64,000 nt of DNA from Pristiophorus japonicus (GCF_044704955.1 NC_091993.1:111104001-111168000); one strand, 5' to 3'. Positions 1 to 64,000 are shown, numbered from the stretch's first letter. Notes: generated by a model from the sequence alone, not told the origin. Translations and numbers: made by a program.

Positions 1-295
1 GACAGTTTCTGTAATGACTCACTTCAGAGATACAAATACAGCAATATCAATGATATTTGGAATATCTGCCTTTATAGTCATTACAGAAAATATTACCCTG
101 TCCCCTAGTCCATGACAAAACATGAATGAAGCAATATTCATGCAGAGGTAGCAGTGGACCTGTGGGCATTTTCACAATTTTGGAAGATCCTTTTTGCATT
201 CAGTTCAGGGCCGTTGTAAATCTTAAATATATTTGGGATAAAACTTGCTTGGAAACAAGATTTGCAAAATAAATTTGTGAACAATTGCCTTCCAG

Positions 296-1579
296 GTTGA
301 GTGGCTGAAGAAAAACAACTATGGAGGAGCGATGGTGTGGGATCTTGCTCTGGATGATTTCTCTGGTGCTTTCTGCAACCAGGGGCCTTACCCTCTCATT
401 AACAAACTGCACACCGGGCTTGGAATTTCTGCAGGTAAATGTCAGGATTATTTATACTTGGAGCTGATTACTTGTTGCTTACCACAAAGTCAGCATGGAA
501 AGCCATTAATGGCTAAAATCATTCAGAAATTGTTTGGATTACCTCAGTGTATTTCAAATTCAATACTTTTAAAGTGGCAAAAATTCTGACCACTAGAATA
601 TTGCTGAGCGTCTATGAGCATAAAGTTCCTCAGACAGGACGAGCAATGCAGCAAAATACTGAAACATGTATATGTGTTAACAGAATAAGACACAAATCCA
701 TGCTGGATGTTGCATCCAGTATGTAATGGCACTAAAAAATAGTGACGATGTGCATTGTAATATTGTGTCATTTAAAGGGACAATGTATTGCGATACAACT
801 TTACCAAGTTTTTTTTAAATGAAAGGAAGTTCAGTAACATCTGCCACAAATGTTGTGTATTCAAAACAGAAAATGCTGGCAGTACTCAGCAGGCCAGGCA
901 GCAGCTTTGGAGAGAGAAGCAGAGTTAACGTTTCAGGTCTGTGACTCTGTTTCTCTCTCTCTCTCCACAGATGCTGCCTGGTCTGCCGAGTGTTTCCAGA
1001 ATTTTCTCTTTAGATTTCAGATTCCAGATTCCAGCATCTGCAGTATTTTGCTGTTGGAGTAATGTTGTGTAACTTGACTTAAAATAGAACTATAATTAAA
1101 TCACACTTCAAATACACTCCAGACACAATGTGCCACATCACAAGATTTCCTCAGTGGCCCTTATTGAGCTGAACTTCACAAACATCTTGTTCCTGATAAC
1201 GCAAGGAACTGAGTTCACCCTGAAGATATTCAATGCAGCAACATCCCTTGAACTTGCAATGCTTAGCTTCAGTTGATATCAATTTTGAAGCAAGCAATGA
1301 ATGAATGAACTTTATTTCCTTCCAGCTTGTGTTCCATCGAAAACAACACTACGACCAAATGTTCCTCCTACTCATGTCCCCAGTGGTGGTGGCGGTGGCG
1401 GGAGTGGTGGTGGTGGCGGTGGTGGCAGTGGGTTCTGCGCTGGCAGATCTAACGGTACCTACCCTGATCCAAAGGATAAGAACAAATTTTATCAATGTGT
1501 CTATGGAGTGACCTACGAGAAGCATTGCGCTGTTGGATTAATCTTTGATACTTCCTGTAACTGTTGCAACTGGGCTTAA
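296..1579 (+). CDS. chia: GH18 acidic chitinase (CHIA-like), copy A, 3' part (exons 10-11)
   Basis: Exon 10 at 296-434 encodes [38 protein letters not shown]. Exon 11 at 1326-1579 encodes a Gly-rich hinge plus CBM14 [11 protein letters not shown]...FYQCVYG...[16 protein letters not shown] splice sites are present. Confidence 0.93.
863..1052. repeat. Palindromic (hairpin-forming) interspersed repeat in intron 10 (also at 22367-22556 and 43864-44053; half copy at ~16720-16860)
   Basis: aaaatgctggcagtactcagcaggccaggcagc...ggagagagaagcagag is followed by its imperfect reverse complement ctctgtttctctc...gctgcctggtctgccgagtgtttccagaatttt. Confidence 0.7.
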
Positions 1580-2104
1580 CGTGAAAGCAGAAGGTAAGCA
1601 TGATTATTATTCTAAGTAACCGATCAAAGCGGGCACCCTGCGTAAAACAATTATGTTCAGGTGGTGTAAAGTACCAGTGTAGTCTTCATTAGCAGCCCCT
1701 AAAGGAATACAGCTGGATTTGAAAGTAGACAGGTAAAAATAAACAAAATGCAGTTGGCTGGGTGTAAAATTTCAACACATCCTGACAATGTAGCAGCACA
1801 TTGAGTGCTGGCCACTGAGTTGTAGGTTCATTTATAGTTTCAGTTGGGTTGAAATGGGTGGAATAATGGGTGGTATGCCCCTGCAGTTCACAGTCACTGC
1901 AGCGCTGTGGTGTCATTGACTTCTGCAGTGACATTAGGGCACATTGACAAGACAGGGTTACTGAGTTATATTTGTGCCTAAGCTGTTTTTACACATGTTC
2001 CAGAAATTGGTTGCAAAGTGGAATTGGGCGGAGGTCTGTGAGTGAGTTTCTGGTCAGTCCAGTTGTGTGATGAACTTGTATTGTTGAAGGAGAAGAAAGG
2101 AGAG

Positions 2105-2336: not shown

Positions 2337-2440
2337 ATTAAGAAATAGACATAATATATAAGTTGTTTGTATGCATCTGATGTCACATTAAAATATTATT
2401 GTTCAATAAGAGAACACAAAGATGCTCTTTATTTTTCCAG

Positions 2441-4056: not shown

Positions 4057-5000
4057 TGTTAGAAATTTAAGACTATCTCTGGTCACTTTAATAATCAGGA
4101 TCGACTGTAAAACCAATCTGGTGGATATATTGTGCTTAATCAGAGGTTAAGACGGAATATAACACATTAGTTTTATAGCAAAAACATACAACCGTAACAG
4201 GTAGTTGATACCGATTCTGACCGGACAAATGGCTGGCGCATGTGAGCAGTTCCCTGGCTTGCAGTCTCTTTCTCTCATCTCGAGCTTCCTTCGGTGAAGC
4301 ATGGGATCAGTCTCGAAAAGTGTTCGACCAGCTAAACTTCTGTTTCGCCCTTCCCTCATACCACCTTTGAGATCAATCTTGAGGAGGCTACTTTTATTCC
4401 ATTTTTAGGGGTGGGCCTGACCCTGGATATTGACAAGACCTTTTGACCTTTAGAGGTTTCTCTAAAAACTTACTATCCAATAAGACTTCTAGTTCTTTGC
4501 CTCGATTCTTGTTTCAAGAACCCGCCTAAAAGATGTCTTATTTTGGCCACGTGTCACTCTGCACTAACACAGGGTTTCTTCCTGTGGAAATCACTCTCAT
4601 CTCTCTCTTCCTGATCCTCTCCTTTGATCCCATGAAGCCAAATCATAAAACTGCTCGTTATCTCTTTTACGACGTAGCTACATTTTTATGTTAACACTCT
4701 CAACTTCCATCCATTATTTTCGCCAGCAGTTTTGTTAAGGCAACTTCAAACTCTACCCTTCGTATTATACATAAAATACATAAACAAGGTTCAAGTCTTA
4801 CCTTAAAAGCAACAGATAATCACATAGCAACAGGGATGGTACATAGTACAAAGAACTATACCCTCCATTTCTAAGCATGTCTCTGATTCGAATAGACAGT
4901 CCGTCTGCAGTTTAAAACAATGAATTAAACACAGCATTCGTATCAGTTTTATACATTCGTAACAGTTTTATACATTTTTAGGCATCCCTGATTTCTAACA
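4057..5000. mobile_element. Solo-LTR-like insertion, 944 bp
   Basis: TG...CA ends with a perfect 10-bp inverted repeat (tgttagaaat/atttctaaca) and a 4-bp target-site duplication GTAC at 4053-4056 and 5001-5004. Confidence 0.8.
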
Positions 5001-8172: not shown

Positions 8173-9346
8173 CCACTCCCGTAGCTTGTTTGTTAGCTGC
8201 CTTTCAACCTCTTCCTTGCAGCCTCTTTCTCTTAATCTAAAGCTTACTTTGCTTTCTCTCTCTCTTCTATCTGTGAGCTCCCTTTTCCCTCTCTTACTTC
8301 CGTCTGTAAGGCTAAGCTTCTGGGAGGTCACATTTAACCTATTTTTAGGGGTGGGCCTGAACCGGGATATTGACCAGACCTTTTGACCTATAGAGGTTTC
8401 CCTAAAACTTTAATACCCAATGGCGTATTGTGTTCTTTGTCTCGATTCTTGTGTCAAAGCCTGTCATTAATATTTTGGCAACACTTCCTTCTCTGTTTAC
8501 ACTTTCCCAGGCTTCGTTCTTTGAAATTCGTATCTTATGTCTTTCGTCCTTATCCTGCCTTTTGATCTCATGAGGCCCAAGCCAGAAACCTGTTCGCTTC
8601 AGAGTGTTACCTCCTTTATGACATAACAAATTGTCCTGTGTTTACGCTAAATTCTACCAAACTTCCTTCCATTATCTTTGCAAGCAGTTCTGTTAATCAA
8701 ACTTCAAATCCTACCTTAGCATTGTACATAAAATACATAAACAAGGCTCAAGTCTTAACTTAATAAAACAACAGATAATCGCTCAGCAACAGAGAGAATG
8801 TTTCTAGTACAAAGAACCCACGCCATCCACCGGAAACCAAGACATTAGCATTTCTAAGCATCGATCTGGTCCGAAGAGACTTTTTATCTGCAATTTGAAC
8901 ATCAGAGTTTAAACACAGCATTTTTTCACAACACAGCTTTAATCGCATAACCATATGCATTTTTAGGCATCTATAGTTTCTAACATGCAGTTCAGTTTTA
9001 GTTGGGTTACATATAATAATTAATCCAAACCATTGAGGAGCATCAATGTGTTGATCAAAGGGCAAGTTCCGTCATTGAATTTACTTCCACTGAAATCATC
9101 CAGATCCAAAGCCCACACCATGGCACCGCAAAATTTGTTACCCTTCAGCCATTGAGCCGACAGTTAAAAAGATACTAAAATACAATTGAGAAGTGCTTTT
9201 TGTTAAATAAAATTAACATTTTATTGAAAATCTAATGCTTTTCCTGCTAAAATACTGCATGGGTTAAAAACTGATATATAGAAGGTGCTCGAATGACTGG
9301 GTGTACTTAAAGCGGATAAGTCACCAGGACTGAATGGGATGCATTC

Positions 9347-10700
9347 AAGGATGTCATAGCAGCGCATTTGGAAAGAGGTAATATGATAGGTTCAAGTCAG
9401 CATGGATTTGTGAAAGGGAAATCATGCTTGACAAATCTTCTGGAATTTTTTGAGGATGTTTCCAGTAGAGTGGACAAGGGAGAACCAGTTGATGTGGTAT
9501 ATTTGGACTTTCAGAAGGCTTTCGACAAGGTCCCACACAAGAGATTAATGTGCAAAGTTAAAGCACATGGGATTGGGGGTAGTGTGCTGACATGGATTGA
9601 GAACTGGTTGTCAGACAGGAAGCAAAGAGTAGGAGTAAATGGGGATTTTTCAGAATGGCAGGCAGTGACTAGTGGGGTACCGCAAGGTTCTGTGCTGGGG
9701 CCCCAGCTGTTTACACTGTACATTAATGATTTCGACGAGGGGATTAAATGTAGTATCTCCAAATTTGCGGATGACACTAAGTTGGGTGGCAGTGTGAGCT
9801 GCAAGGAGGATTCTATAAGGCTGCAGAGTGACTTGGATAGGTTAGGTGAGTGGGCAAATGCATGGCAGATGAAGTATAATGTGGATAAATGTGAGGTTAT
9901 CCACTTTGGTGGTAAAAACAGAGAGACAGACTATTATCTGATTGGTGACAGATTCGGAAAAGGGGAGGTGCAAAGAGACCTGGGTGTCATGGTACATCAG
10001 TCATTGAAGGTTGGCATGCAGGTACAGCAGGCGGTTAAGAAAGCAAATGGCATGTTGGCCTTCATAGCGAGGGGATTTGAGTACAAGGACAGGGAGGTGT
10101 TGCTACAATTGTACAGGGCCTTGGTGAGGCCACACCTGGAGTATTGTGTACAGTTTTGGTCTCCTAACCTGAGGAAGGACATTCTTGCTATTGAGGGAGT
10201 GCAGCGAAGGTTCACCAGACTGATTCCCGGGATGGCGGGACTGACCTATCAAGAAAGACTGGATCAACTGGGCTTGTATTCACCGGAGTTCAGAAGAATG
10301 AGAGGGGACCTCATAGAAACGTTTAAAATTCTGACGGGGTTAGACAGGTTAGATGCAGGAAGAATGTTCCCAATGTTGGGGAAGTCCAGAACCAGGGGAC
10401 ACAGTCTAAGGATAAGGGGGAAGCCATTTAGGACCGAGATGAGGAGGAATTTCTTCACCCAGAGAGTGGTGAACCTGTGGAATTCTCTACCACAGAAAGT
10501 TGTTGAGGCCAATTCACTAAATATATTCAAAAAGGAGTTAGATGAAGTCCTTACTACTAGGGGAATCAAGGGGTATGGTGAGAAAGCAGGAATGGGGTAC
10601 TGAAGTTGCATGTTCAGCCATGAACTCATTGAATGGCGGTGCAGGCTAGAAGGGCCGAATGGCCTACTCCTGCACCTATTTTCTATCCATGTTTCTATGT
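9347..10700 (+). mobile_element. CR1 LINE, 5'-truncated and chimeric; open 411-codon RT/C-terminal frame at 9368-10603
   Basis: Motifs QHGFVKGKSCLTNL, YLDFQKAFDKVPH, SGVPQGSVLGP and KFADDTKL, followed by a CR1 3'UTR and tttctat tail. Confidence 0.93.
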
Positions 10701-11118
10701 TATGATGAACCTTTATAAAACACTGGTTCGGCCTTAACTGGAGTATTGTGTCCAATTGTGGGAACTGCAGTTTAGGAACAATGTGAAGGCCTTAGAGGGG
10801 GTGCAGAAAAGATTTACAAGACTGATTCCAGGAATGAGGGACTTCAGTTACGTGGATAGACTGGAGAAGCTGGGGTTGCTCTACTTCGAGCAGGGAAAGC
10901 TGAGAGGAAATTTGATACAGGTGTTCAAAATCTTGAGGGGTCGAGATAGAGTAGATAGAGAGAAATTGTTCCCATTGGCAGAATGACCGAGACCAGAGGA
11001 CACAGATTTAAGGTGATTGGCAGAAGAACCAAAGGCGACATGAGGAAAAACCTTTTTTCGCAGTGGGTGGTCAGGATCTGGAATTCACTTCCTGAAAGGG
11101 TGATGGGGGCAGATGCAA
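10701..11118 (+). mobile_element. 3' segment of the older CR1 (also at ~32203-32620 and ~56685-57102)
   Basis: Degenerate ORF2 C-terminus: ALEGVQKRFTRLIPGM...TRGHRFKV...VVRIWNSLP. Confidence 0.8.
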
Positions 11119-11265
11119 TTCCGATGCCGAGCCTGCCTACAGGTCGGTCTGGGGATGGTGGGGGAGTGAAGCTACTGGGTGCGGGACTGGACCGGCAATA
11201 ATGTTGTGGAGCCAGGAGCAGCACGTTACCCTCCTGGGCCAACAGAACAACTGGGTGGAGCCAAC

Positions 11266-11893
11266 TGCAAAGGGGATGGAGTATAAAAGCAGGGAAGTCT
11301 TGCTACAGTTGTACAGGGTATTGACGATGCCACACCTGGAATACTGCGTGCAGTTTTGGTTTTCATATTTACGAAAGGATATACATGCTTTGGAGGCAGT
11401 TCAGAGAAGGTTCACAAGGTTGATTCCGGAGATGAGGGGGTTGACTTATGAGAAAAGATTGAGTAGGTTGGGCGTCTACTCATTGGAATTCGGAAGAATG
11501 AGAGGCAATCTTATCGAAGCGTATAAGATAATGAGGGGGCTTGAATAGGTGGATGTAGAGAGGATGTTTCCACTGATGGGGGAGACTAGAACTAGAGGGC
11601 ATGATCTTAGAATAAGGGGCCACCCATTTAAAACTGAGATGAGGAGAAATTTCTTCTCTCAGAGGGTTGTAAATCTGTGGAATTCGCTGCCTCAGAGAGC
11701 TGTGGAAGCTGGGACATTGAATAAATTTAAGATAGAACTAGGCAGTTTCTTAAACGATAAGGGGATAAGGGGTTATGGGGAACGGAGCTGAGACCATGAC
11801 CAGATCAGCCATGGTCTTATTAAATGGCGGAGCAGGCTCGAGGGGCAGTATGGCCTACTCCTGTTCCTATTTCTTATGTTCTTATGTTCTTAT
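11266..11893 (+). mobile_element. CR1 3' fragment of another subfamily (also at ~32768-33395 and ~57250-57877)
   Basis: Reads GMEYKSREVLLQLY...PHLEYCVQFW...TRGHDLRI, with a (ttcttatg)n tail. Confidence 0.85.
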
Positions 11894-12147
11894 TAGCTCC
11901 GCACATTTGCAAATCAATTTTGATCGGGATCCTAAACCTGGCAGAAAGATTTGAATCTGCGAGGTGCTTAACTTATGTTTCAGGCAGATGCCCTGCACAC
12001 CTAGTCGCTGCTTCCAATCAATGGTTTCATAAAGCAAAAATGTATGAAAATACATGTTAAGCCAAAGATGCCCCTGCCAAGCCAGCAACTTTGGGCAGAA
12101 AAATATATAAAGCAAGTGGGTACACTGTGAAAATGAGATAATTGAAA

Positions 12148-12460
12148 GGCAGAAGCGTCAGTAACCAGAGGACACCGATTTAAGGTGATTGCCAAAAGAA
12201 GCAGAGGTGACATGAGGAAACATTTTTTTACACAGCAAGTTGTTGTGCTCTGAACTGCACTGCCTGAAAGGGTGGTGGAAGCAGATTTAATTGTAACATT
12301 CAGAAGAGAATTGGATGAATACTTAAAGAGAAAACATTTACAGGGCTAGGGGGACAGAGCAAGGGAGTGAGATTAATTGGATAGCTCTGTGAAAGAGCCT
12401 GGCACAGGCACGATAGGCTAAAGGGTCACCTTCTGTGCTGTATCATTCTACGATTCTATG
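12148..12460 (+). mobile_element. Short CR1 3'-end fragment (also in units 2 and 3)
   Basis: accagaggacaccgatttaaggtgattg... resembles 10992-11110 and ends in an attcta-type tail. Confidence 0.7.
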
Positions 12461-13190
12461 ATAAGCAGGCCTGTGCTGACAGTCCTTGTTATCACCAGAA
12501 ATAGGAGCAGGTGTTGCCTCGAGCCCGCTCTGCATGCTTCATTTTATTTATCAACCATTTTCTTGGCACTTACATGTACCTTATCTTCATGTTTACATAT
12601 TGTTCTGAGCACCTTGTTTGGAAAACTGTTCCTTCATAACAGTAATCAGGATTTTTTTCCCTAAGTTTTCAGAGCACTGTGACCCAGAAATTCAGCTGCA
12701 GAGCACCGTTTTTCAGGCGCTAAATGGCCTACTATGCAGGCAGGAAGCATGTGCACATTTCCGGCTGGAAGTGCGCCGCTCGCTACATGAGATTAACTGG
12801 CTACTCTGGTGTCAGGAACGCACGTCGGGAACATTGAAAGGGGGAAATAATTCATTTATATTCGGGTCCCGCATGTCTTGCCGGATCAGTTTGCGATTTC
12901 CAAATTGCCCAGCGCTTCACTCGCCCCGTGCTGAACTTGCACAGCGCAGCGTGATGCTAACCAGCAGGAAGGCCCCCATACTTACCTGGACGTGGAGCCT
13001 GCAGTTTTCCTGCTCCTCCCCATCCCGCATTAAAGGAACGTAGGCCGCTCGCTCTCCCCACCGATTCCTAGGCCTCTGTCTTTAGTCCAAAAGCAGGTTT
13101 GAGGTTACAGTGAAGGTTGGCAATCTAGATGACATTGCCGAGGGAATAACGTGTTATTCAAGAGAAGGTAAAGATCACATTATGTAGGTA

Positions 13191-13294
13191 AGATAAGAAC
13201 TGTTATTTTTCCATTAAGACTGGTCTTTTTCCAGTGATAACGTACTATAGCGTATGGGATTATTTATCACTAAAATAAACTCAGTGTATAAAAG
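13191..13294 (+). promoter_or_regulatory. Proximal promoter of copy B: TATA box plus three GATA motifs
   Basis: TATAAAAG at 13287-13294, 42 nt before the ATG. AGATAA at 13191, TGATAA at 13235, TTATCA at 13264. Confidence 0.7.
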
Positions 13295-13328
13295 AGGGAG
13301 TTGATCTCCACAACACACCAGTTACAAG

Positions 13329-23944: not shown

Positions 23945-24124
23945 CCTGCAATCAATCTTTGTTGAATACCGATGAGGCTGTAACTGGCCTTCAGTTTAAT
24001 TACGGAAATGACACCACTTTGCGGATAAAGACCATTAAACTACAACATCTAATTTGTCTCAACTGAAGATAGCAATTGCAGTTAAAGCAGCAAAATAAAA
24101 TAATTGATTCCTGAAGATAACAGT
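23945..24124 (+). other. Putative non-coding terminal exon and poly(A) signal of copy B
   Basis: Donor at 23098, acceptor ending at 23944, AATAAA at 24094-24099 with a downstream GT-rich element. Confidence 0.55.
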
Positions 24125-30660: not shown

Positions 30661-30849
30661 CGACAGTTAAAAAGATACTAAAATACAATTGAGAAGTGCT
30701 TTTTGTTAAATAAAATTAACATTTTATTGAAAATCTAATGCTTTTCCTGCTAAAATACTGCATGGGTTAAAAACTGATATATAGAAGGTGCTCGAATGAC
30801 TGGGTGTACTTAAAGCGGATAAGTCACCAGGACCGAATGGGATGCATTC

Positions 30850-34796: not shown

Positions 34797-34830
34797 AGGG
34801 AGTTGATCTCCACAACACACCAGTTACAAG

Positions 34831-43800: not shown

Positions 43801-44580
43801 TTTACCAAGTTTTTTTTAAATGAAAGGAAGTTCAGTAACATCTGCCACAAATGTTGTGTATTCAAAACAGAAAATGCTGGCAGTACTCAGCAGGCCAGGC
43901 AGCAGCTTTGGAGAGAGAAGCAGAGTTAACGTTTCAGGTCTGTGACTCTGTTTCTCTCTCTCTCTCCACAGATGCTGCCTGGTCTGCCGAGTGTTTCCAG
44001 AATTTTCTCTTTAGATTTCAGATTCCAGATTCCAGCATCTGCAGTATTTTGCTATTGGAGAAATGTTGTATAACTTGACTTAAAATAGAACTATAATTAA
44101 ATCACACTTCAAATACACTCCAGACACAATGTGCCACATCACAAGATTTCCTCAGTGGCCCTTATTGAGCTGAACTTCACAAACATCTTGTTCCTGATAA
44201 CGCAAGGAACTGAGTTCACCCTGAAGATATTCAATGCAGCAACATCCCTTGAACTTGCAATGCTTAGCTTCAGTTGATATCAATTTTGAAGCAAACAATG
44301 AATGAATGAACTTTATTTCCTTCCAGCTTGTGTTCCATCAAAAACAACACTGCGACCAAATGTTCCTCCTACTCATGTCCCCAGTGGTGGTGGCGGTGGC
44401 GGGAGTGGTGGTGGTGGCGGTGGTGGCAGTGGGTTCTGCGCTGGCAGATCTAACGGTACCTACCCTGATCCAAAGGATAAGAACAAATTTTATCAATGTG
44501 TCAATGGAGTGACCTACGAGCAGCATTGCGCTGTTGGATTAATCTTTGATACTTCCTGTAACTGTTGCAACTGGGCTTAA
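34831..44580 (+). CDS. chia: GH18 acidic chitinase (CHIA/AMCase-like), copy C, complete, 11 coding exons, 474 aa
   Basis: Exons: 34831-34855, 36484-36513, 36601-36802, 37728-37784, 38447-38612, 38943-39067, 41064-41190, 41319-41501, 42388-42504, 43298-43436, 44327-44580. The only protein differences from B that I saw are in the CBM14 ([11 protein letters not shown] vs [11 protein letters not shown]). Confidence 0.95.
39697..39773 (+). pseudogene. Degenerate partial duplicate of catalytic exon 5 inside intron 6 (copy C)
   Basis: Same sequence as 18196-18272. Confidence 0.85.
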
Positions 44581-49800: not shown

Positions 49801-52161
49801 CTCCAGTGAATAGAGGCCCAGTTGATCCAGTCTCTCCTCATATGACAGTTCAGCCATCCCTGGAATTAGTCTGGTGAACCTTCGCTGCACTCCCGCAATA
49901 GCAAGAATGTCCTTCCTCAGATTAGGAGACCAAAACTGAACACAATATTCCAGGTGAGGCCTCATTAAGGCCCTGTACAACTGCAGTAAGACCTCCCTGC
50001 TCCAATACTCAAATCGCTGAGGGGATTTGTAGGATCTTGCGGAGACATCGCTGGTGGTATTACTCCAGCGACTTGAGGTGTCTGTTGCACATGGTGCACG
50101 TCTCTGAGCCATACAGGAGGGTGGGTATTACCACAGCCCAGTAGACCATGAGCTTGGTGACAGTTTTGAGGGCTTGGTCTTCAAACACTCTCTTCCTCAG
50201 GCAGCCGAAGGCTGCACTGGCGCACTGGAGGCGGTGTTGGATCTCGTCGTCACTGTCTGCCCTTGTTGCTAGGAGGCTCCCAAGATAAGAGAAGTGGTCT
50301 ACGTTGTCCAGGGCCGCGCCGTGGATCTTGATGATTGGGGGGTAATGCTATCCGCTGAGGATAGGCTGGTGGAGGACCTTTGACTTACTGATGTTTAGCG
50401 TAAGGCCCATGCTTTCATACGCCTCGGTAAATACGTCGACTATGTCCTGGAGTTCACCCTCTGTGTGTGCACAGACGCAGGTGCCGTCCGCATACTGTAG
50501 CTCGATGACAGAGGTTGGAGTGGTCTTGCACCTGGCCTGGAGATGGCGAAGGTTGAACAGCTTCCCACTGGTTCTGTAGTTTAGTACCACTCCAGCGTGG
50601 AGCTCGTCAACTGTGAGGTGGAGCATGGCAGCGCGGAAGATTGAGAAGAGGGTTGGAGCGAAGACGCAGCCCTGCTTCACCCCGGTCCAGATGTGGATTG
50701 GGTCTGTGATGGATCCGTTGGTAAGGACCATGGCCTGCATGTCGTCATGTGGTAACGTACTTTTAGGGGCATCCGAAACAGAGGAGGACGCTCCATGGAC
50801 CCTCGCAGTTGACAGTGTCAAAGGCCTTTGTAAGGTCGAAGAAGGCCATGTATAAGGGCTGGCGCTGTACCCTGCATTTTTCCTGCAGCTGTCGTGCTGC
50901 AAAGTTCATGTCCGTTGTGCCCCAGAGGGGATGAAATCTGCACTGCAACTCCGGGAGCAGCTCTTCGGCCATGGGGAGAAGATGGTTGAGGAGGACTCTC
51001 GCGACAACTTTCCCAGTGGCTGATAGCAGGGCAATTCCTCTGTAGTTGCCGCAGTCCGACTTGTCCCCTTTTTAAAAGATGGTCACAATTACTGCATCTC
51101 TAAGATCTCCCGGCATGCACTCCACCCTCCAGACGAGAGAGATGAGGTCGTGTATTCGCCTCAGCAGGGATTCCATCCACTCCCGTAGCTTGTTTGTTAG
51201 CTGCCTTTCAACCTCTTCCTTGCAGCCTCTTTCTCTTAATCTAAAGCTTACTTTGCTTTCTCTCTCTCTTCTATCTGTGAGCTCCCTTTTCCCTCTCTTA
51301 CTTCCGTCTGTAAGGATAAGCTTCTGGGAGGTCACATTTAACCTATTTTTAGGGGTGGGCCTGAACCGGGATATTGACCAGACCTTTTGACCTATAGAGG
51401 TTTCCCTAAAACTTTAATACCCAATGGCGTATTGTGTTCTTTGTCTCGATTCTTGTGTCAAAGCCTGTCATTAATATTTTGGCAACACATCCTTCTCTGT
51501 TTACACTTTCCCAGGCTTCGTTCTTTGAAATTCGTATCTTATGTCTTTCGTCCTTATCCTGCCTTTTGATCTCATGAGGCCCAAGCCAGAAACCTGTTCG
51601 CTTCAGAGTGTTACCTCCTTTATGACATAACAAATTGTCCTGTGTTTACGCTAAATTCTACCAAACTTCCTTCCATTATCTTTGCAAGCAGTTCTGTTAA
51701 TCAAACTTCAAATCCTACCTTAGCATTGTACATAAAATACATAAACAAGGCTCAAGTCTTAACTTAATAAAACAACAGATAATCGCTCAGCAACAGAGAG
51801 AATGTATATAGTACAAAGAACCCATGCCATCCACCGGAAACCAAGACATTAGCATTTCTAAGCATCGATCTGGTCCGAAGAGACTTTTTAGCTGCAATTT
51901 GAACATCAGAGTTTAAACACATCATTTTTTCACAACACAGCTTTAATCGCATAACCATATGCATTTTTAGGCATCTATAGTTTCTAACATGCAGTTCAGT
52001 TTTAGTTGGGTTACATATAATAATTTATCCAAACCATTGAGGAGCATCAATGTGTTGATCAAAGGGCAAGTTCCGTCATTGAATTTACTTCCACTGAAAT
52101 CATCCAGATCCAAAGCCCACACCATGGCACCGCAAAATTTGTTACCCTTCAGCCATTGAGC
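46866..52161 (-). pseudogene. Inverted chitinase pseudogene fragment, unit 3
   Basis: Exon-10 relic at 52015-52161, where the TAA of units 1 and 2 is AAA. Exon-11 relic at 46866-48025, split by the LTR at 47060-48003. Confidence 0.88.
47060..48003. mobile_element. Solo-LTR-like insertion, unit 3 copy
   Basis: Same termini and GTAC target-site duplication as 4057-5000. Confidence 0.8.
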
Positions 52162-52351
52162 CGACAGTTAAAAAGATACTAAAATACAATTGAGAAGTGC
52201 TTTTTGTTAAATAAAATTAACATTTTATTGAAAATCTAATGCTTTTCCTGCTAAAATACTGCATGGGTTAAAAACTGATATATAGAAGGTGCTCGAATGA
52301 CTGGGTGTACTTAAAGCGGATAAGTCACCAGGACCGAATGGGATGCATTCA

Positions 52352-53714
52352 AGGATGTCATAGCAGCGCATTTGGAAAGAGGTGACATGATGGATCCAAG
52401 TCAGCATGGATTTGTGAAAGGGAAATCATGCTTGACAAATCTTCTGGAATTTTTTGAGGATGTTTCCAGTAGAGTGGACAAGGGAGAACCAGTTGATGTG
52501 GTATATTTGGACTTTCAGAAGGCTTTCGACAAGGTCCCACACAAGAAATGAATGTGCAAAGTTAAAGCACATGGGATTGGGGGTAGTGCGCTGACATGGA
52601 TTGTGAACTAGTTGTCAGACAGGAAGCAAAGAGTAGGAGTAAATGGGGATTTTTTAGAATGGCAGGCAGTGACTAGTGGGGTACCGCAAGGTTCTGTGCT
52701 GGGGCCCCAGCTGTTTACACTGTACATTAATGATTTCGACGAGGGGATTAAATGTAGTATCTCCAAATTTGCGGATGACACTAAGTTGGGTGGCAGTGTG
52801 AGCTGCGAGGAGGATGCTATGATGCTGCAGAGCGACTTGGATACTTGGATAGGTTAGGTGAGTGGACAAATGCATGGCAGATGAAGTATAATGTGGATAA
52901 ATGTGAGGTTATCCACTTTGGTGGTAAAAACAGAGAGACAGACTATTATCTGAATGGTGACAGATTAGGAAGAGGGGAGGTGCAACGAGACCTGGGTGTC
53001 ATGGTACATCAGTCATTGAAGGTTGGCATGCAGGTACAGCAGGTGGTTAAGAAAGCAAATGGCATGTTGGCCTTCATAGCGAGGGGATTTGAGTACAGGG
53101 GAAGGGAGGTGTTGCTACAGTTGTACAGGGCCTTGGTGAGGCCACACCTGGAGTATTGTGTACAGTTTTGGTCTCCTAACTTAAAGAAGGACATTCTTGC
53201 TATTGAGGGAGTGCAGTGAAGGTTCACCAGACTGATTCCCGGGATGGCGGGACTGACCTATCAAGAAAGACTGGATCAACTGGGATTGTATTCACTGGAG
53301 TTCAGATGAATGAGAGGGGACCTCATAGAAACGCTTAAAATTCTGATGGGTTTAGACAGGTCAGATGCAGGAAGAATGTTCCCAATGTTGGGGAAGTCCA
53401 GAACCAGGGGACACAGTCTAAGGATAAGGGGTAAGCCATTTAGGACCGAGATAAGGAGAAACTTCTTCACCAAGAGAGTGGTGAACCTGTGGAATTCTCT
53501 ACCACAGAAAGTTGTTGAGGCCAATTCACTAAATATATTCAAAAAGGAGCTAGATGAAGTCCTTACTACTAGGGAGATCAAGGGGTATGGCGAGAAAGCA
53601 GGAATGGGGGACTGAAGTTGCATGTTCAGCCATGAACTCATTGAATGGCGGTGCAGGCTAGAAGGGCCGAATGGCCTACTCCTGCACCTATTTTCTATGT
53701 TTCTATGTTTCTAT
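52352..53714 (+). mobile_element. CR1 LINE 'left' copy in unit 3, degenerate
   Basis: RT motifs with stops, an 8-bp duplication (acttggat) near 52835-52850, and a (tttctatg)n tail. Confidence 0.9.
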
Positions 53715-54636
53715 GATGCTTGGGAAAGAAAGGAAGAAATTGCGCAGGTACTGGCCATAATCTTCCAATCCTTCTTGGAAACGGGACTTGTGCCAGAGGA
53801 CCGGAGAATTGCAAATGTTACACACTTGTTCAAAAAATGGTGTAAGGACAAACCTAGCAACTACAGTCCAATGCGTTTGACTTCGGTACTGGGAAAGATT
53901 TTAGAAGCGACAATCCGGGACAAAATTGATAGGCACTTGGACAAGTATGGATTAATTAAGGAAAGCCAGCACGGATGTATTAAAGGAAAATCATGTTTAA
54001 CTGACTTGATTGAGTTTTTTGATGAGGGTTGATGAAGGCAATGCGGATCATGTGGTGTATAAGGTCTTCTAAAAGGCGTTTGATGAAGTGCCACATAATA
54101 GGCTTGCCAGCAAAGTTGAAGTCCATGGAATAAAAGGGACAGTGGCAGCATGGATACGAATTTGGCTCAGTGAAAGGAAACACAGAGTAGTGGTGAACGG
54201 TTGTTTTTTGGACTGGAGGAAGGTATACAGTGGTGTTCCCCAGGCGTCGGTACGAGGACCACCACTTTTCTCGATGTATGTAAATGACTTAGACTTGGGT
54301 GTACAAGGCAGAATTTCAAAATTTGCGGATGACGCAAAACTTGGAAGTACAGCGAACAGTGAGGAGGATAGTGATAGACTTCAAGAGGCTGTTGGAATGG
54401 ACAGACACGTGGCAGATGAAATTTAATGCAGAAAAGTGCGAGGTGTACATTTTGAAAGGAAGAACGAGGAAAGGCAATATAACCTAAAGGTTACAATTCT
54501 AAAGAGGGTGCAGGAACAGAGAGACCTGGGGGTATATGTGCACAAATCATTGAATGTGGCAGGGCAGCTTGAGAAAGTGGTTAAGAAAACATACGGGATC
54601 CTGGACTTCATAAATAGAGTACAAATGTAAAGAAGT
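53715..54636 (+). mobile_element. Middle segment of an older CR1, present only in unit 3
   Basis: Degenerate RT motifs (ESQHGCIKGKSCLTDLIEFF, SGVPQASVRGP, KFADDAKL). Colinear with the older-CR1 pieces at ~52283-52351 and 56681-57100. Confidence 0.85.
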
Positions 54637-56680
54637 CGTAAAAATAAAAAAGGGAAGGTGGCTCAACCATGGCTATCAAGGGAAATCAGGGATTGCATTA
54701 AAGCCAAGGAGGTGGCATACAAATTGGCCAGAAATAGCAGAGAACCCGGGGACTGGGAGAAATTTAGAACTCAGCAGAGGAGGACAAAGGGTTTGATTAG
54801 GGCAGGGAAAATGGAGTACGAGAAGAAGCTTGCAGGGAACATTAAGACGGATTGCAAAAGTTTCGATAGATATGTAAAGAGAAAAAGGTTAGTAAAGACA
54901 AACGTAGGTCCCCTGCAGTCAGAATCAGGGGAAGTCATAACGGGGAACAAAGAAATGGCTGACCAATTGAACAAGTACTTTGGTTCGGTATTCACTGAGG
55001 AGGACACAAACAACCTTCCGGATATAAAAGGGATCGGAGGGTCTAGTAAGGAGGAGGAACTGAGGGAAATCCTTATTAGTCAGGAAATTGTGTTGGGGAA
55101 ATTGATGGGATTGAAGGTCGATAAATCCCCAGGGCCTGATGGACTGCACCCCAGAGTACTTAAGGAGGTGGCCTTGGAAATAGCGGATGCATTGACAGTC
55201 ATTTTCCAAGTTCCTATGGAGTGGAGTGTAGCCAATGTAACCCCACTTTTAAAAAAAGGAGGGAGAGAGAAAATAGGGAATTACAGACCGGTCAGCCTGA
55301 CATCGGTAGTGGGTAAAATGATGGAATCAATTATTAAGGATGTCATAGCAGTGCATTTGGAAAGAGGTAATATGATAGGTCCAAGTCAGCATGGATTTGT
55401 GAAAGGGAAATCATGCTTGACAAATCTTCTGGAATTTTTTGAGGATGTTTCCAGTAGAGTGGACAAGGGAGAACCTTGTGGTATATTTGGACTTTCAGAA
55501 GGCTTTCGACAAGGTCCCACACAAGAAATTAATGTGCAAAGTTAAAGCACATGGGATTGGGGGTAGTGTGCTGACATGGATTGAGAACTGGTTGTCAGAC
55601 AGGAAGCAAAGAGTAGGAGTAAATGGGGATTTTTCAGAATGGCAGGCAGTGACTAGTGGGGTACCGCAAGGTTCTGTGCTGGGGCCCCAGCTGTTTACAC
55701 TGTACATTAATGATTTCGACGAGGGGTTTAAATGTAGTATCTCCAAATTTGCGGATGACACTAAGTTGGGTGGCAGTGTGAGCTGCAAGGAGGATTCTAT
55801 GAGGCTGCAGAGCGACTTGGATAGGTTAGGTGAGTGGGCAAATGCATGGCAGATGAAGTATAATGTGGATAAATGTGAGGTTATCCACTTTGGTGGTAAA
55901 AACAGAGAGACAGACTATTATCTGATTGGTGACAGATTCCGAAAAGGGGAGGTGCAAAGAGACCTGGGTGTCATGGTACATCAGTCATTGAAGGTTGGCA
56001 TGCAGGTACAGCAGGCAGTTAAGAAAGCAAATGGCATGTTGGCCTTCATAGCGAGGGGATTTGAGTACAAGGGCAGGGAGGTGTTGCTACAATTGTACAG
56101 GGCCTTGGTGAGGCCACACCTGGAGTATTGTGTACAGTTTTGGTCTCCTAACCTGAGGAAGGACATTCTTGCTATTGAGGGAGTGCAGCGAAGGTTCACC
56201 AGACTGATTCCCGGGATGGCGGGACTGACCTATCAAGAAAGACTGGATCAACTGGGCTTGTATTCACTGGAGTTCAGAAGAATGAGAGGGGACCTCATAG
56301 AAACGTTTAAAATTCTGACGGGGTTAGACAGGTTAGATGCAGGAAGAATGTTCCCAATGTTGGGGAAGTCCAGAACCAGGAGACACAGTCTAAGGATAAG
56401 GGGGAAGCCATTTAGGACCGAGATGAGGAGGAATTTCTTCACCCAGAGAGTGGTGAACCTGTGGAATTCTCTACCACAGAAAGTTGTTGAGGCCAATTCA
56501 CTAAATATATTCAAAAAGGAGTTAGATGAAGTCCTTACTACTAGGGGAATCAAGGGGTATGGTGAGAAAGCAGGAATGGGGTACTGAAGTTGCATGTTCA
56601 GCCATGAACTCATTGAATGGCGGTGCAGGCTAGAAGAGCCGAATGGCCTACTCCTGCACCTATTTTCTATCCATGTTTCT
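54637..56680 (+). mobile_element. CR1 LINE 'right' copy in unit 3, ~2.0 kb, 5'-truncated
   Basis: ORF2 pieces 54658-55545 and 55439-56587 are joined by a frameshifting 4-bp deletion near 55476. Flanked by aagt...aagt. Confidence 0.92.
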
Positions 56681-59186
56681 AAGTTATGATGAACCTTTAT
56701 AAAACACTGGTTCGGCCTTAACTGGAGTATTGTGTCCAATTGTGGGAACTGCAGTTTAGGAACAATGTGAAGGCCTTCGAGGGGGTGCAGAAAAGATTTA
56801 CAAGACTGATTCCAGGAATGAGGGACTTCAGTTACGTGGATAGACTGGAGAAGCTGGGGTTGCTCTACTTCGAGCAGGGAAAGCTGAGAGGAAATTTGAT
56901 ACAGGTGTTCAAAATCTTGAGGGGTCGAGATAGAGTAGATAGAGAGAAATTGTTCCCATTGGCAGAATGACCGAGACCAGAGGACACAGATTTAAGGTGA
57001 TTGGCAGAAGAACCAAAGGCGACATGAGGAAAAACCTTTTTTCGCAGTGGGTGGTCAGGATCTGGAATTCACTTCCTGAAAGGGTGATGGGGGCAGATGC
57101 AATTCCGATGCCGAGCCTGCCTACAGGTCGGTCTGGGGATGGTGGGGGAGTGAAGCTACTGGGTGCGGGACTGGACCGGCAATAATGTTGTGGAGCCAGG
57201 AGCAGCACGTTACCCTCCTGGGCCAACAGAACAACTGGGTGGAGCCAACTGCAAAGGGGATGGAGTATAAAAGCAGGGAAGTCTTGCTACAGTTGTACAG
57301 GGTATTGACGATGCCACACCTGGAATACTGCGTGCAGTTTTGGTTTTCATATTTACGAAAGGATATACATGCTTTGGAGACAGTTCAGAGAAGGTTCACA
57401 AGGTTGATTCCGGAGATGAGGGGGTTGACTTATGAGAAAAGATTGAGTAGGTTGGGCGTCTACTCATTGGAATTCGGAAGAATGAGAGGCAATCTTATCG
57501 AAGTGTATAAGATAATGAGGGGGCTTGAATAGGTGGAGGTAGAGAGGATGTTTCCACTGATGGGGGAGACTAGAACTAGAGGGCATGATCTTAGAATAAG
57601 GGGCCACCCATTTAAAACTGAGATGAGGAGAAATTTCTTCTCTCAGAGGGTTGTAAATCTGTGGAATTCGCTGCCTCAGAGAGCTGTGGAAGCTGGGACA
57701 TTGAATAAATTTAAGATAGAACTAGGCAGTTTCTTAAACGATAAGGGGATAAGGGGTTATGGGGAACGGAGCTGAGACCATGACCAGATCAGCCATGGTC
57801 TTATTGAATGGCGGAGCAGGCTCGAGGGGCAGTATGGCCTACTCCTGTTCCTATTTCTTATGTTCTTATGTTCTTATTAGCTCCGCACATTTGCAAATCA
57901 ATTTTGATCGGGATCCTAAACCTGGCAGAAAGATTTGAATCTGCGAGGTGCTTAACTTATGTTTCAGGCAGATGCCCTGCACACCTAGTCGCTGCTTCCA
58001 ATCAATGGTTTCATAAAGCAAAAATGTATGAAAATACATGTTAAGCCAAAGATGCCCCTGCCAAGCCAGCAACTTTGGGCAGAAAAATATATAAAGCAAG
58101 TGGGTACACTGTGAAAGTGAGATCATTGAAAGGCAGAAGCGTCAGTAACCAGAGGACACCGATTTAAGGTGATTGCCAAAAAAAGCAGAGGTGACATGAG
58201 GAAACATTTTTTTACACAGCAAGTTGTTGTGCTCTGAACTGCACTGCCTGAAAGGGTGGTGGAAGCAGATTTAATAGTAACATTCAGAAGAGAATTGGAT
58301 GAATACTTAAAGAGAAAACATTTACAGGGCTAGGGGGACAGAGCAAGGGAGTGAGATTAATTGGATAGCTCTGTGAAAGAGCCTGGCACAGGCACGATAG
58401 GCTAAAGGGTCACCTTCTGTGCTGTATCATTCTACGATTCTATGATAAGCAGGCCTGTGCTGACAGTCCTTGTTATCACCAGAAATAGGAGCAGGTGTTG
58501 CCTCGAGCCCGCTCTGCATGCTTCATTTTATTTATCAACCATTTTCTTGGCACTTACATGTACCTTATCTTCATGTTTACATATTGTTCTGAGCACCTTG
58601 TTTGGAAAACTGTTCCTTCATAACAGTAATCAGGATTTTTTTCCCTAAGTTTTCAGAGCACTGTGACCCAGAAATTCAGCTGCAGAGCACCGTTTTTCAA
58701 GCGCTAAATGGCCTACTATGCTCCCAATATGGCAGGCAGGAAGCATGTGCACATTTCCGGCTGGAAGTGCGCCGCTCGCTACATGAGATTAACTGGCTAC
58801 TCTGGTGTCAGGAACGCACGTCGGGAACATTGAAAGGGGGAAATAATTCATTTAAATTAGGGTCCCGCATGTCTTGCCGGATTAGTTTGCGATTTCCAAA
58901 TTGCCCAGCGCTTCACTCGCCCCGTGCTGAACTTGCACAGCGCAGCGTGATGCTAACCAGCAGGAAGGCCCCCATACTTACCTGGACGTGGAGCCTGCAG
59001 TTTTCCTGCTCCTCCCCATCCCGCATTAAAGGAACGTAGGCCGCTCGCTCTCCCCACCGATTCCTAGGCCTCTGTCTTTAGTCCAAAAGCAGGTTTGAGG
59101 TTACAGTGAAGGTTGGCAATCTAGATGACATTGCCGAGGGAATAACGTGTTATTCAAGAGAAGGTAAAGATCACATTATGTAGGTA

Positions 59187-59290
59187 AGATAAGAACTGTT
59201 ATTTTTCCATTAAGACTGGTCTTTTTCCAGTGATAACGTACTATAGCGTATGGGATTATTTATCACTAAAATAAACTCAGTGTATAAAAG
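59187..59290 (+). promoter_or_regulatory. Proximal promoter of copy D (TATA + GATA)
   Basis: Same motifs as the copy B promoter, with TATAAAAG at 59283. Confidence 0.7.
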
Positions 59291-59324
59291 AGGGAGTTGA
59301 TCTCCACAACACACCAGTTACAAG

Positions 59325-62300
59325 ATGGCAAAGCTCCTGGTTGCAACAGGTAAGCATGTTTTACCATTTCATTACTTTCGATGTTGTAAGATTTTTCAGA
59401 AAATTTAGCTCTAAGATACCAATGGGGAATAGAACAAAGTGAAGACTCTTTTCTCAAATTCAAGTCTAATTAAAAAAGATTTGATTTTCTTTCTGTGTTA
59501 TCTGAAGATACGTTACTGTTGATAGCACGCTGCTAAGTGCATGTTTTGACCAAAATTAACAGCAACAACAACAACTTGTATTTATATAGTGCCTTTAACA
59601 TAGTGAAACATCCCAGGGTGCTTCACAGGAGTATTGAGAGACAAAAAGTTTGACCCCAAGCCACATATTAAGGCAGGTGACCAAAAGCTTTGTCAAAGAG
59701 GAAGGTTTTAAGGATGGTCTTGAAGAAGGAAAGAGAGGTAGAGAGGCACTCCAAATGACCCAACCCCATCGGATTATCTCCCTCCTGTTCCCCAATAAAT
59801 GCTCTTTGACTGTACCGTGCATCATTATACTTCTGTTGTGATCAGATACAAGCAAGCAGGTGACCAAAAGTGATTGTGAGTCAATTCTCAGGTCTACCAG
59901 CTTCAGTTTTTAACTAATTGCGAAATGAACGTGAACAAATGGGGTTAAATTGTAATGAGTGATAGCAGTAGAATTGCATGAAGTGGAAGGAGGCTGTCTG
60001 TGTGATGGAGAGAATATGGGCTTGGAAGTTCCATTTGTGATTGAATACGACACGCGTTTGCGAGCAGTCTGGTTCAGCCTGAGACTGTAGCCAGGAACGA
60101 GTTGATGGCAAAATTGGGGATGGGAGCCAAAGATGAAAACTTCGCTCATTCCAATGTTTAGCTGGAAAAAAATTGTGACTCATCCAAAACTGGTTGTTGG
60201 ACAAGTTATCAGACAGTACAGGGACACTGGAGGTGTGAAGAAGGTTGGTGGTGAGGTAGAGCCGATGTCATCAACGTACATCATCATCATCATCATAGGC
60301 AGTCCCTCGGAATCGAGGAAGACTTGCTTCCACTCTTGAAGTGAGTTCTTTGGTGGCTGAACAGTCCAATACGAGAGCCACAGACTCTGTCACAGGTGGG
60401 ACAGATAGTTTTTGAGGGAAGGGGTAGGTGGGACTGCTTTGCCGCACGCTCTTTCCGCTGTCTGCGCTTGATTTCTGCATGCTCTCGCCATTGAGGCTTG
60501 AGATGCTCAGCAGCCTCTCGGATGCACTTCCTCCACTTAGGGCGGTCTTGGGCCAGGGACTCCCAGGTGTCAGTGGGGATGTTGCACTTTATCAGGGAGG
60601 CTTTGAGGGTGTCCTTGTACTGTTTCCGCTGCCCACCTTTGGCTCGTTTGCCATGAAGGAGCTCCGAGTAGAGCACTTGCTTTGGTAGTCTCGTGTCTGG
60701 CATGCGGACTATGTGGCCTGCCCAGCGGAGCTGATCGAGTGTGGTCAGTGCTTCAATGCTGGGGATGTTAGCCTACATCAACGTACATGTGGATGCTGAC
60801 CCCATGTCTGCAGATTATGTCGTTAAAGGGCAGCATATAGGTGAGGTAAAGGATTGTGCCAAGGATAGGTTCTTGTGGGCTCCCAGCCACACATATAATA
60901 GGCTCATTGTGTATCCTTGAATCTTTAAGCATATTTTGATCATAATTCTAAAACTTACTTTATATCCTTTATTGCAGTGGTGGTCTTGTTGGCGTGCCTG
61001 GAACTGGGTAAGTCTTTGTGCATTTCAAGCGTTCCTTTATTTTAATGTAATGTGTGGAAGCACTGTCCTGATTTCCATTTCTCCCCACTCACAGGCTCTG
61101 CCTACAGACTGGTTTGTTACTTTACAAACTGGGCTCAGTACAGGCCAGGAGCGGGGAAGTACAAGCCGGAGAATGTGGACCCTTGCTTGTGCACACATCT
61201 GATCTACGCTTTTGCTGGGATGAAGGACAATCAAATCGCCACCTATGAATGGAACGATGTTACTCTCTACCACTCATTCAATTCCCTTAAAAACAAGTAT
61301 AATTATGCTATAAATATTGACAATGTACCTGAAATACTTAGCATTGTTTGATGTCTGTGTTATATTTTGTTTTATATTCCAAAATTGTGCCCATTTATAT
61401 ATAAATATAACTTGTCTGACCCAGCCAGAGAGGTGATATATGTGTAGAATTGGCTTATGATTTGCGTCTCACAAGTGGAGATTGAGTCAATGCCCAATGG
61501 TTCTGACAATGCCCAATGTAGAATGAAGCATATCATGATATCACCACGTAAACAAAAACACCTATTCATTCAACAACGCAATGCGCAACCCTTAGGCCGG
61601 TCTATCAAAGTAACAAGTTGTTTTAATGGGTGTGCAGCTAGATTATACTTGCCACATGCACTGAACTTTGCACTTGCTTCTGAATCTCAGAGTACACTGG
61701 AGCACATGCAGACATGTGTGCCGTGCAAAGTGCAGTGCGTACACACCTGCATATGTACAGTGACACTGGGTATCGGAGATAGCTGGAACAATCAGTCTGC
61801 TCACCAACACCGGGTGAGTGAGATGACATTATTTAATGCACTTTAATTGTTCCAGACTGCTACAAAGGCACAGATCAACTCATATTTTCACAAAAAACCA
61901 CCCCGCCCCAGTTTTGTATCCCCAATTGTTAGTGATTCTGTCCCCCTGTTTTAAAACTCCTCTCTTGTCATTTTCCCTACTCTGCCTTAGAGGACAGCTA
62001 GGTGACTTGCTCCCAGGGCTATGCAGGTGATGTTCATTGGAAGCTGCATAAATGTGGTGCAGAGAGATTTGTCAGTAAATGTGTGTTCTGCATTCAGGTA
62101 CTTCCATTTAACCAAATTCAATCGCACAAGGAGAAAGCAGTTAAAGATGAGAACAGTAATGATTTTCAGCAATTACTGAAGTGTTATTAAATGCATTTGC
62201 TTATGTTCTAATTTTACAACAGAAATGGAAACCTTAAGACACTTCTGTCCATCGGAGGCTGGAACTTTGGAACTCAGAAGTAAGATGGAAATATTTTATT

Positions 62301-63562
62301 TTGGTATTGAGTGAAAAGTGATTCTTTTCCAATTGCTTGTGATGCAAAGTGAACTGGGGACAGACATATTGTGGGCAATGATAACCATGCAGTTTTCAAT
62401 AAATATATCGGAGGTTAGCTTATAGTATTTCTTGAATGAGTGATTAAGCTGGGCTGTCTGTAAAATGTAAATCAAACAATATTTAGGGGCTGATATTTGT
62501 CTGAAAGGAAAGATTGCAACATTTTCAGAAAGAATCATTTCAAGTTAATACACTTGGTGAAGATTGATTGAACTGATTACTGAGAGCAGCAACAATACAA
62601 CACTTAGCAATTATATTTTTGTAAATTCCTGGTATATCTTGAAATTATAAAAATTATGAAGCTCTTTCAGGTACAGGCTGAAATGACTAAATCAAAAATG
62701 CATCTGTTCTGAAATAAAAACAGAGCATGCTGGAAACACTCAGCAAGTCGGGCAGCTTCTGTGGAGCGAGAAACAGGGTTAAGGTTTCAGGCCAATGACA
62801 CTTCCTCAGCACTGGAAAAAGTTAGAGATGTAACAGGTTTTAAGCAAGTACAGAGGCAGCGAAAGTTGATGGGAGGAGTGATTAAATGACAAAAGAGATG
62901 ACGGTGTTCTGATTTTTCTTTAACATTATCCTCTCCTCCAGATTCAGCGCTATGGTTTCCTCATCAGCAACTCGCCAAACATTCATAAAGTCTGTGATTA
63001 GCTTCCTGCGCGGTTATGGGTTTGATGGTTTGGATATAGATTGGGAATATCCCGGGTCAAGGGGAAGCCCCCCACAAGACAAACATCTCTACACTCTGTT
63101 GACACAGGTGGGATTTAAAATACGATTTCATCAATTCCATGTAAATGGAATATTCAAAGTAGAAATATATGTATTTACTTCGCAAAACACTTTAATCGCA
63201 GCTTCATTAACCACTGTGATAAGAGAAAAATGTTTGTTGTGACTCTGTGCAATAACTGCTATCCATCTAGGCTCTGTTGAAACCTGGTTCTACCTCTAGC
63301 TATACCCTTGTATTAGATACATTATTATGCAACACTTGGGCATGGATACATTTTATAATTCTTTAGTCGGTGATTGAAACCCTCTGTTTTGCGTGGACCA
63401 GTTGCTAAGAGAACCTTTATTCACTTTCAACTTTTAGGAAATGATGGCAGCCTTCGAGGCTGAAGGGAAAAGTTCCGGGACTCCAAGACTCTTGCTCTCA
63501 GTTGCAGTTGCTGGTGGGAAGAGCAACATTGATACCGGCTATGAGGTTCCTCAGGTTGGACA
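59325..63562 (+). CDS. chia: GH18 acidic chitinase (CHIA-like), copy D, 5' part (exons 1-6; continues beyond window)
   Basis: Exons: 59325-59349, 60978-61007, 61095-61296, 62223-62279, 62942-63107, 63438-63562. Frame and splice sites are intact and the catalytic DIDWEYP is present. Confidence 0.93.
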
Positions 63563-64000
63563 GTAAGTATCCATGCCAGTCCTACAGGACTTTCTGATTT
63601 TTTTGTGCTTCCTTGGTAGTTCAGCAAATTTAACTAGTTAGTAGCTGGGCCATACAGCCCTGGAAAGTCCCAGGTTCCATCTCCAGTCTGTACTGAGTGG
63701 AACTGTCTTTCGAATGACACATTAAACCAAGGCCCCATCTGCTCTTTCAGCTCGACATAAAAGATCCCATGGCACTATTTTAAAGAAGAGCAGAGGAGTT
63801 ATCCCCGATGTCCTGGCCATTATTTATCCCTCAACCAACATCACTAAAAAACAAATTATCTGGTCATTATCACATTGCTGTTTGTGGGAGCTTACAGTGT
63901 TCAAATTGGCTGCCGCGTTTCCTACATTACAATAGTGACTACACTTCAAAAGTACTTCATTGGCTATAAAGTGCTTTGGGACGTCCGGTGATCGTGAAAG

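Follow-up and report, generated by a model that had tools for sequence, protein, structure and literature searches.

A tandem array of near-identical CHIA-type chitinase genes with recombined LINEs in the sawshark Pristiophorus japonicus

In mammals, the tandem chitinase paralogs CHIA1-5 are reported to track an insect diet (Emerling et al. 2018, PMC5955627). According to the same report, conversion between the tandem genes CHIA4 and CHIA5 occurs widely among mammals, secondary CHIA duplications in placentals are rare and non-chitinolytic, and the cause of this rarity is unclear, duplication seeming a simple route to more chitinase. Rodents are described as mostly retaining one CHIA copy (PMC13391239). 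In teleosts the CHIA genes are reported to be stomach-specific (PMC10234404), and a chitinase cloned from blue shark stomach is cited in PMC4728518. Amylase offers a parallel in another digestive hydrolase, for which lineage-specific retrotransposons beside the copies are described in the mammalian copy-number bursts (Pajic et al. 2019, PMC6516957).

We analysed a window of 64 kb of the genome of the sawshark Pristiophorus japonicus, that is, the whole stretch of 64,000 nucleotides, and found four chitinase genes of the GH18+CBM14 type arranged head-to-tail. The locus resembles the mammalian CHIA1-5 genes in its tandem chitinases, in a proposed link between gene number and diet and in gene conversion between neighbours. 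However, the mammalian paralogs are given as ancient and varying by loss (PMC5955627), whereas the sawshark copies are more than 99% alike, introns included, and keep their catalytic residues. As in the amylase bursts, a digestive hydrolase is present in near-identical copies specific to one lineage, and the same retrotransposon lies near every copy, but here two LINE copies recombined and changed the length of the unit; and while copy number, activity and diet have been measured for amylase (PMC6516957), the sawshark array is known from sequence alone. The array copies already carry automatic annotation as named protein entries. Our search of the openly available literature found no description of the array or of a shark chitinase expansion. 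On balance, we favour the view that this is an array of at least four CHIA copies, likely at least five, which likely spread by unequal crossing-over and was likely kept for chitinase output in the gut.

Gene copies and the encoded chitinase

Self-BLAST aligned positions 1-32209 with 21506-53718 at 99.2% identity, giving a 21.5-kb direct repeat across 1-53718, and a further repeat copy was found between 9347-18004 and 55336-64000 (99.25%). Exons were placed by eye and then checked by script. The gene-to-gene spacing is 21504 bases between copies A and B, 21502/21497 between B and C and 24494 between C and D, and the head-to-tail array of four copies at 21.5-24.5 kb proposed in the initial annotation is thus borne out by both the self-BLAST and the exon placement. 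All copies lie on the plus strand. Copy B (13329-23083) is complete, with 11 exons, 1425 nt and 474 aa in a script-checked model with the Pfam domains GH18 and CBM_14; its exons are 13329-13353, 14982-15011, 15099-15300 and 16227-16283 (exons 1-4), 16946-17111, 17442-17566, 19563-19689 and 19818-20000 (exons 5-8), and 20888-21004, 21800-21938 and 22830-23083 (exons 9-11). Copy C (34831-44580) is also complete with 11 exons, 1425 nt and 474 aa and has four coding differences from B, all in exon 11, of which two are synonymous and the others, Y450N and K456Q, fall within the chitin-binding domain. Exons 10-11 of copy A (296-434 and 1326-1579), covering the end of GH18, the linker, CBM14 and the stop, are visible, the 5' part lying outside the window, and agree with B at all 393 coding bases. 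Exons 1-6 of copy D (59325-63562), whose 3' part lies outside the window, have a single synonymous difference from B.

Both window edges lie within a gene copy, and the array therefore reaches past both of them, as had been claimed. The visible introns of all copies are GT-AG throughout and the visible exons hold no stop and no frameshift; the coding exons and splice sites are intact as first described, with the whole gene visible in two of the four copies (B and C) and A and D cut by the window edges. The description of the units as near-identical stands for the 99.2% repeats, but has to be qualified in that the third spacer is 3 kb longer and copy C has its four coding changes. Upstream of copies B, C and D the proximal 430 bases are identical. 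The promoters visible in these three copies, initially described as intact, share a TATA motif at -42 and WGATAA motifs at -138, -94 and -65 (13191-13328, plus strand, for copy B), all of them motif matches only. Twelve bases at 58720-58731, about 600 bases upstream of copy D, have no counterpart in front of B and C. The GATA sites would suit a gut promoter. When they were counted in 150-bp bins, one other bin had four sites and the placement of the bins missed the promoter, and the motif evidence is weak.

The predicted protein consists of a signal peptide, placed by alignment to residues 1-21 of mouse AMCase, followed by GH18, a linker and CBM14. In Pfam searches, each of the three exons of the catalytic domain that were submitted matched GH18 and exon 11 matched CBM14, and PF00704 matched the database entry P0124 with an E value of 1.5e-107. 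The catalytic D136, D138 and E140 (DxxDxDxE / DxDxE) are present and unchanged in B, C and D, and D213 is present as in AMCase. Mouse and human AMCase were the best PDB matches by sequence and by fold (Foldseek), and an AlphaFold model (pLDDT 72.5) confirmed the AMCase-like fold. In a quick maximum-likelihood tree of 89 domains, with outgroup domains cut from fused database entries, the 52 elasmobranch rows formed one group (99) that joined the bony-vertebrate CHIA (99) in a group of 71 rows (SH-aLRT 99), and the CHIA group of the window chitinase was separated from CHIT1, CHI3L and CHIO-like sequences. The CHIA-type identity assigned initially is thus upheld, with the gene on the shark branch of CHIA. 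It resembles the vertebrate CHIA/AMCase enzymes, its sister group, in signal peptide, D136/D138/E140, D213, R145, H269, linker and CBM14, and has 11 coding exons as given for bird CHIA (PMC13029220).

One difference from the bony CHIA concerns the residues cited for activity in acid, for which the triad R145, H208 and H269 is reported (PMC11182645, PMC10761930). R145 and H269 (H270 in window numbering) are present in the window chitinase. Position 208, encoded in exon 7 (19563-19689), is Asn in the window and in every one of the 52 elasmobranch rows, whereas the 18 bony CHIA rows all have His; at position 215 His is replaced by Phe, and a pI of about 8 was computed, compared to about 5 in tetrapod CHIA. 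His208 is likely to be a gain of the bony vertebrates, judging from this alignment. The name acidic chitinase therefore holds for the CHIA family, R145 and H269, but with Asn at position 208 it is a family label, and the acid optimum of the enzyme would probably be milder than that of mouse AMCase. His269 is reported to favour low pH in chicken enzymes (PMC13029220), and stomach chitinases with Asn208 that are abundant in the gastric mucosa are reported from teleosts (PMC10761930); a stomach role is therefore compatible with these residues. In the outgroups, position 208 is mostly Asn or Ser. Arg145 is gapped in eleven shark rows (P0030, P0034, P0037, P0041, P0043, P0055, P0059, P0116, P0159, P0160 and P0162) by a short deletion just past the catalytic motif, and all eleven belong to one subgroup of 12 rows.

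Copy number, age and selection

Private substitutions number 13, 14 and 69 in the three copies of the segment 1-9346, and 15, 21 and 19 in those of the segment 10708-18004; pairwise distances range from 0.29% (A-B) to 0.89%. Differences in the first segment comprise 57 transitions, 39 transversions and 8 gap columns, and are thus mostly substitutions with few indels. Three distinct lineages per segment require more than one diploid locus. We also aligned public contigs of four of the seven runs listed on 12900-24800, of which the DNA-type contigs all come from one sample and runs X1 and X3 are possibly from the assembly's own sample. Variant letters were taken from the 40 of 86 rows listed, and after 15 rows of repeat depth and six of the spliced X5 contig were set aside, 17 of the remaining 19 low-depth letters among the rows listed were the letter of another window copy. 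The main contigs had depths of 32-53, as against about 5-13 for the minor contigs at matching positions, depth here being no measure of copy number; run X6 gave repeat-derived pieces only, among the pieces listed. False duplication is unlikely in view of the private substitutions of each copy and the 17 of 19 letters recurring in public contigs.

Named Pristiophorus japonicus proteins match the window copies at 99.4-100%, which agrees with the cartilaginous fish origin suggested at first, and the nearest cluster representatives are shark proteins at 80-84%. P0122 is of the copy C type, and its extra residues agree with a base that C alone carries close to the donor of exon 10. At 43437-43442, a change seen in C only occupies +6 of this donor; P0122 splices at a donor six bases further on and gains two residues. 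P0126 agrees with B and A from Met61 on, while the 3' ends of P0124 (N450/K456) and P0125 (I435) are unlike those of A, B and C, and copy D can account for at most one of these two. At least five copies therefore exist, provided that the entries share one haploid assembly; the entries themselves are silent on this point. P0125 and P0126 have 414 aa and begin at Met61 without a signal peptide, the first 60 residues missing, and P0123 is a partial entry of 206 aa (a 92% partial). Given these 414-aa and 206-aa entries, some copies beyond the window may be broken.

Coding differences among the copies total five, namely three synonymous changes and the two replacements in copy C. With all non-coding DNA as the baseline, 8.0 non-synonymous changes would be expected where two are seen (P 0.014), and with introns as the only baseline 6.2 (P 0.052). 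None of them falls in exons 1-10, against 4.9 expected on the intron baseline (P 0.007; 4.9-6.0 across baselines). Synonymous changes were as many as expected (3 vs 2.3). The counts are small, and the total coding deficit on the intron baseline was not significant (5 vs 8.05, P 0.19). These numbers lend modest support to purifying selection among the copies; the same pattern could also arise from gene conversion, or from selection before the duplication.

For the epaulette shark, a mutation rate of 7e-10 per generation and an allelic diversity of 0.2% are reported (PMC10587355). At this rate, distances of 0.3-0.9% correspond to about 2-6 million generations (range 1-31) in the absence of gene conversion, and the smallest distance between copies (0.29%) is close to the diversity of 0.2%. 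The array is real and is young relative to other chitinase paralogs; in this relative sense it was rightly called recent, but its age in absolute terms would be about 2-6 million generations (range 1-31), again in the absence of gene conversion.

Spacers, LINEs and chitinase relics

The longer spacer between C and D holds two young LINEs with a piece of an older LINE between them. Within it, a young 5'-truncated LINE (LINE-A, 52351-53718, plus strand) lies inside an older LINE, is 96.4% identical to LINE-C and is followed by a middle piece of the older LINE (53719-54640, plus strand), which occurs in this spacer only and has no close copy elsewhere in the window. LINE-C (54641-56690, plus strand), a second young LINE of the same family, carries RVT_1 with the reverse transcriptase in two broken frames, and the two young LINEs are 3.2-4.0% apart. 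We take the family to be CR1, from the tail repeat. By tblastn the older LINE continues in collinear order past the two young insertions, and its stubs lie at 52310-52357 and 56683-57110: its residues 161-176 lie before LINE-A, the next stretch between the LINEs and the remainder after LINE-C. The upstream stub is a protein match of 16 aa (E 5e-4); at the DNA level its score of 45 is below the shuffle maximum of 49.5, so that the protein match alone supports it. Since the older LINE is collinear in this spacer, the 24.5-kb form is ancestral.

The A-B and B-C spacers are 3 kb shorter, with one LINE each and without the middle piece of the older LINE. In the B-C spacer this is a recombinant (30850-32209, plus strand), of which the first half is like LINE-A and the second like LINE-C, with a switch near 31540-31590; informative sites to the left are 17 of A type and 6 of C type, and to the right 3 and 26 (Fisher p 3e-6; 0 of 300 permutations as good). 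The LINE of the A-B spacer (9347-10707, plus strand) has the start point of LINE-A and is of LINE-C type at 44 of 52 informative sites. Its switch-point test did not reach significance (190 of 300 permutations as good), and the grounds for a recombinant origin are the 5' start in common with LINE-A and a single site. Overall, the LINE rearrangements are well supported. We considered the extra 3-kb piece as a seam of the duplication and ruled this out, as the older LINE runs collinear through it; no duplication seam was identified within the window, in keeping with unequal crossing-over within a tandem cluster that was already old.

Such a cluster is also supported by exon relics of other chitinases in each unit. 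An antisense exon-10 relic of a different chitinase paralog (8981-9172, 30484-30675 and 51985-52176, minus strand) gave tblastn E values of about 1e-9 to 1e-12, and a relic of exon 5 with the catalytic motif (18188-18272 and 39689-39773, plus strand; 86% to exon 5) lies in intron 6. Among the fetched proteins, the best matches of the exon-10 relic were tetrapod CHIA and not shark. These dead fragments in the spacers and in intron 6 had gone unlisted in the initial annotation. The spacers also contain two segments of about 480 bases (4383-4856 and 8323-8817, with copies in the other units), 73% alike and 3.9 kb apart, which are possibly the ends of an old mobile element.

From these observations we propose that a 24.5-kb unit of gene plus spacer, with an old LINE broken by two young LINEs, would have been amplified, or its copies made uniform, through unequal exchange. 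The young LINEs would then have recombined with each other and so deleted 3 kb at least twice, or once with a conversion tract, to give the 21.5-kb units, whose switch points differ. Such LINE-LINE exchanges would shorten the units and would not themselves mark the event that duplicated the gene.

Why the copies persist

Digestive dosage is the most likely reading, and we lean towards it. A benefit of dosage is inferred from the near-identical proteins and promoters and from the deficit of amino-acid changes. The enzyme would be a secreted endochitinase acting on crustacean cuticle or squid pen, and extra copies would raise the output of secreted chitinase in the gut, by analogy with extra amylase genes in starch eaters. 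The separate sample of run X5 provided a spliced contig of 1199 nt, whose listed pieces correspond to exons 3, 5, 6, 8 and 10 and sit at the offsets predicted by the spliced exon model. It has a depth of 9.6 and is neither on record as RNA nor labelled by tissue. Its six listed differences are all synonymous and match no window copy, and four of them are also present in X3 contigs; the contig may come from another copy or may be mixed. It supports the gene model and some transcription, while fitting no window copy. In the tree, the window gene shares a subgroup of 21 rows (support 91) with a blue shark chitinase, which we assume to be the protein cloned from stomach.

Other elasmobranchs have chitinase clusters of the same clade, with several entries per species, often on one contig. 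A non-identical chitinase pair at 96% or more was found in at least five of the 20 elasmobranch species listed (the sawshark and four others), and Mustelus has up to 8 entries among the matches listed. This species count was made from protein entries among the matches listed (15 of 27 members for one cluster), with isoforms removed by name only. Young pairs are present in Amblyraja (97-98%), Rhinoraja (99.4%), Hypanus (96.5%) and Hemitrygon (97.6%). The sets in question, from two skates and two stingrays, are P0087/P0139/P0141/P0230, P0229/P0234, P0085/P0138 and P0135/P0136 (96.5-99.4%). The sawshark set is the most uniform among those listed, with four entries at 99.0-99.8%, the other species being compared as proteins. 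The comparison suggests that the skate and stingray sets may be parallel amplifications. The skates, rays and sawshark concerned eat crustaceans, and a literature search for the diet of Pristiophorus japonicus found no paper.

The main rival, and a serious one that is possible without being likely, is neutral birth-and-death turnover, in which copy number drifts in a LINE-rich, unstable cluster liable to conversion and unequal exchange, and the genes are intact because they are young or homogenised. The dead chitinase fragments within each unit and two independent LINE-LINE rearrangements in three spacers are what such turnover would leave, and the A-B distance of 0.29% is close to the allelic diversity of another shark. 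Pairs at 96% or more in at least five of the 20 species listed, with up to 8 entries in Mustelus, and the reported CHIA4-CHIA5 conversion in mammals (PMC5955627) also agree with it, and near-identical paralogs in four skates and rays fit repeated adaptation or ordinary turnover alike. However, drift alone would not readily account for exons 1-10 free of amino-acid change where 4.9-6.0 were expected while synonymous changes were as expected, nor for the identical 430 bases upstream of B, C and D. If turnover is neutral, this is an ordinary multigene cluster, already annotated automatically.

Dosage might instead have been selected in a role outside digestion, either mucosal defence against chitin-bearing parasites or chitin turnover in the electrosensory ampullae. 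The missing His208, the basic pI and the fact that the sole spliced contig is of low depth and from a sample without a tissue label would suit this, as would chitin reported in the ampullae of Lorenzini (bioRxiv 10.1101/687301). We consider such a role improbable, because the gene lies in the CHIA clade, CHIA expression is reported as stomach-specific in fishes (PMC10234404) and Asn208 is reported in teleost stomach chitinases abundant in gastric mucosa (PMC10761930). The GATA sites, as motif matches, also fit a gut promoter. Least probable of all, and hardly to be credited, is an assembly artefact in which one or two true copies were written several times from haplotypes or noisy reads: the units are indeed 99% identical, none of the contigs aligned crosses two units and X1/X3 may be the assembly's own sample, but against it stand at least three lineages per segment with private substitutions and few indels, three spacers that differ in structure, copy-diagnostic letters that reappear in independently built contigs (17 of 19) and, as a hint only since depth is no copy number, the depths of main and minor contigs.

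Returning to digestive dosage, a broader proposal is that elasmobranchs respond quickly and repeatedly to crustacean-rich diets by amplifying a stomach chitinase gene in intact form, the sawshark array being a case that is still moving, polymorphic in copy number, reshaped by recombination of LINEs and based on an enzyme active in the stomach although it lacks His208; we hold this tentatively and regard it as rather unlikely as a whole. The array itself is a young and intact case of CHIA duplication in a vertebrate group other than placentals. Its copy-diagnostic sites make expression per copy and copy number directly measurable, and the young pairs of four skates and rays allow diet to be compared across species. 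If repeated, diet-driven amplification is true, it would be for chitin what the amylase bursts are for starch, and would provide secondary CHIA duplications of the sort reported as missing in placentals by Emerling et al. (PMC5955627).
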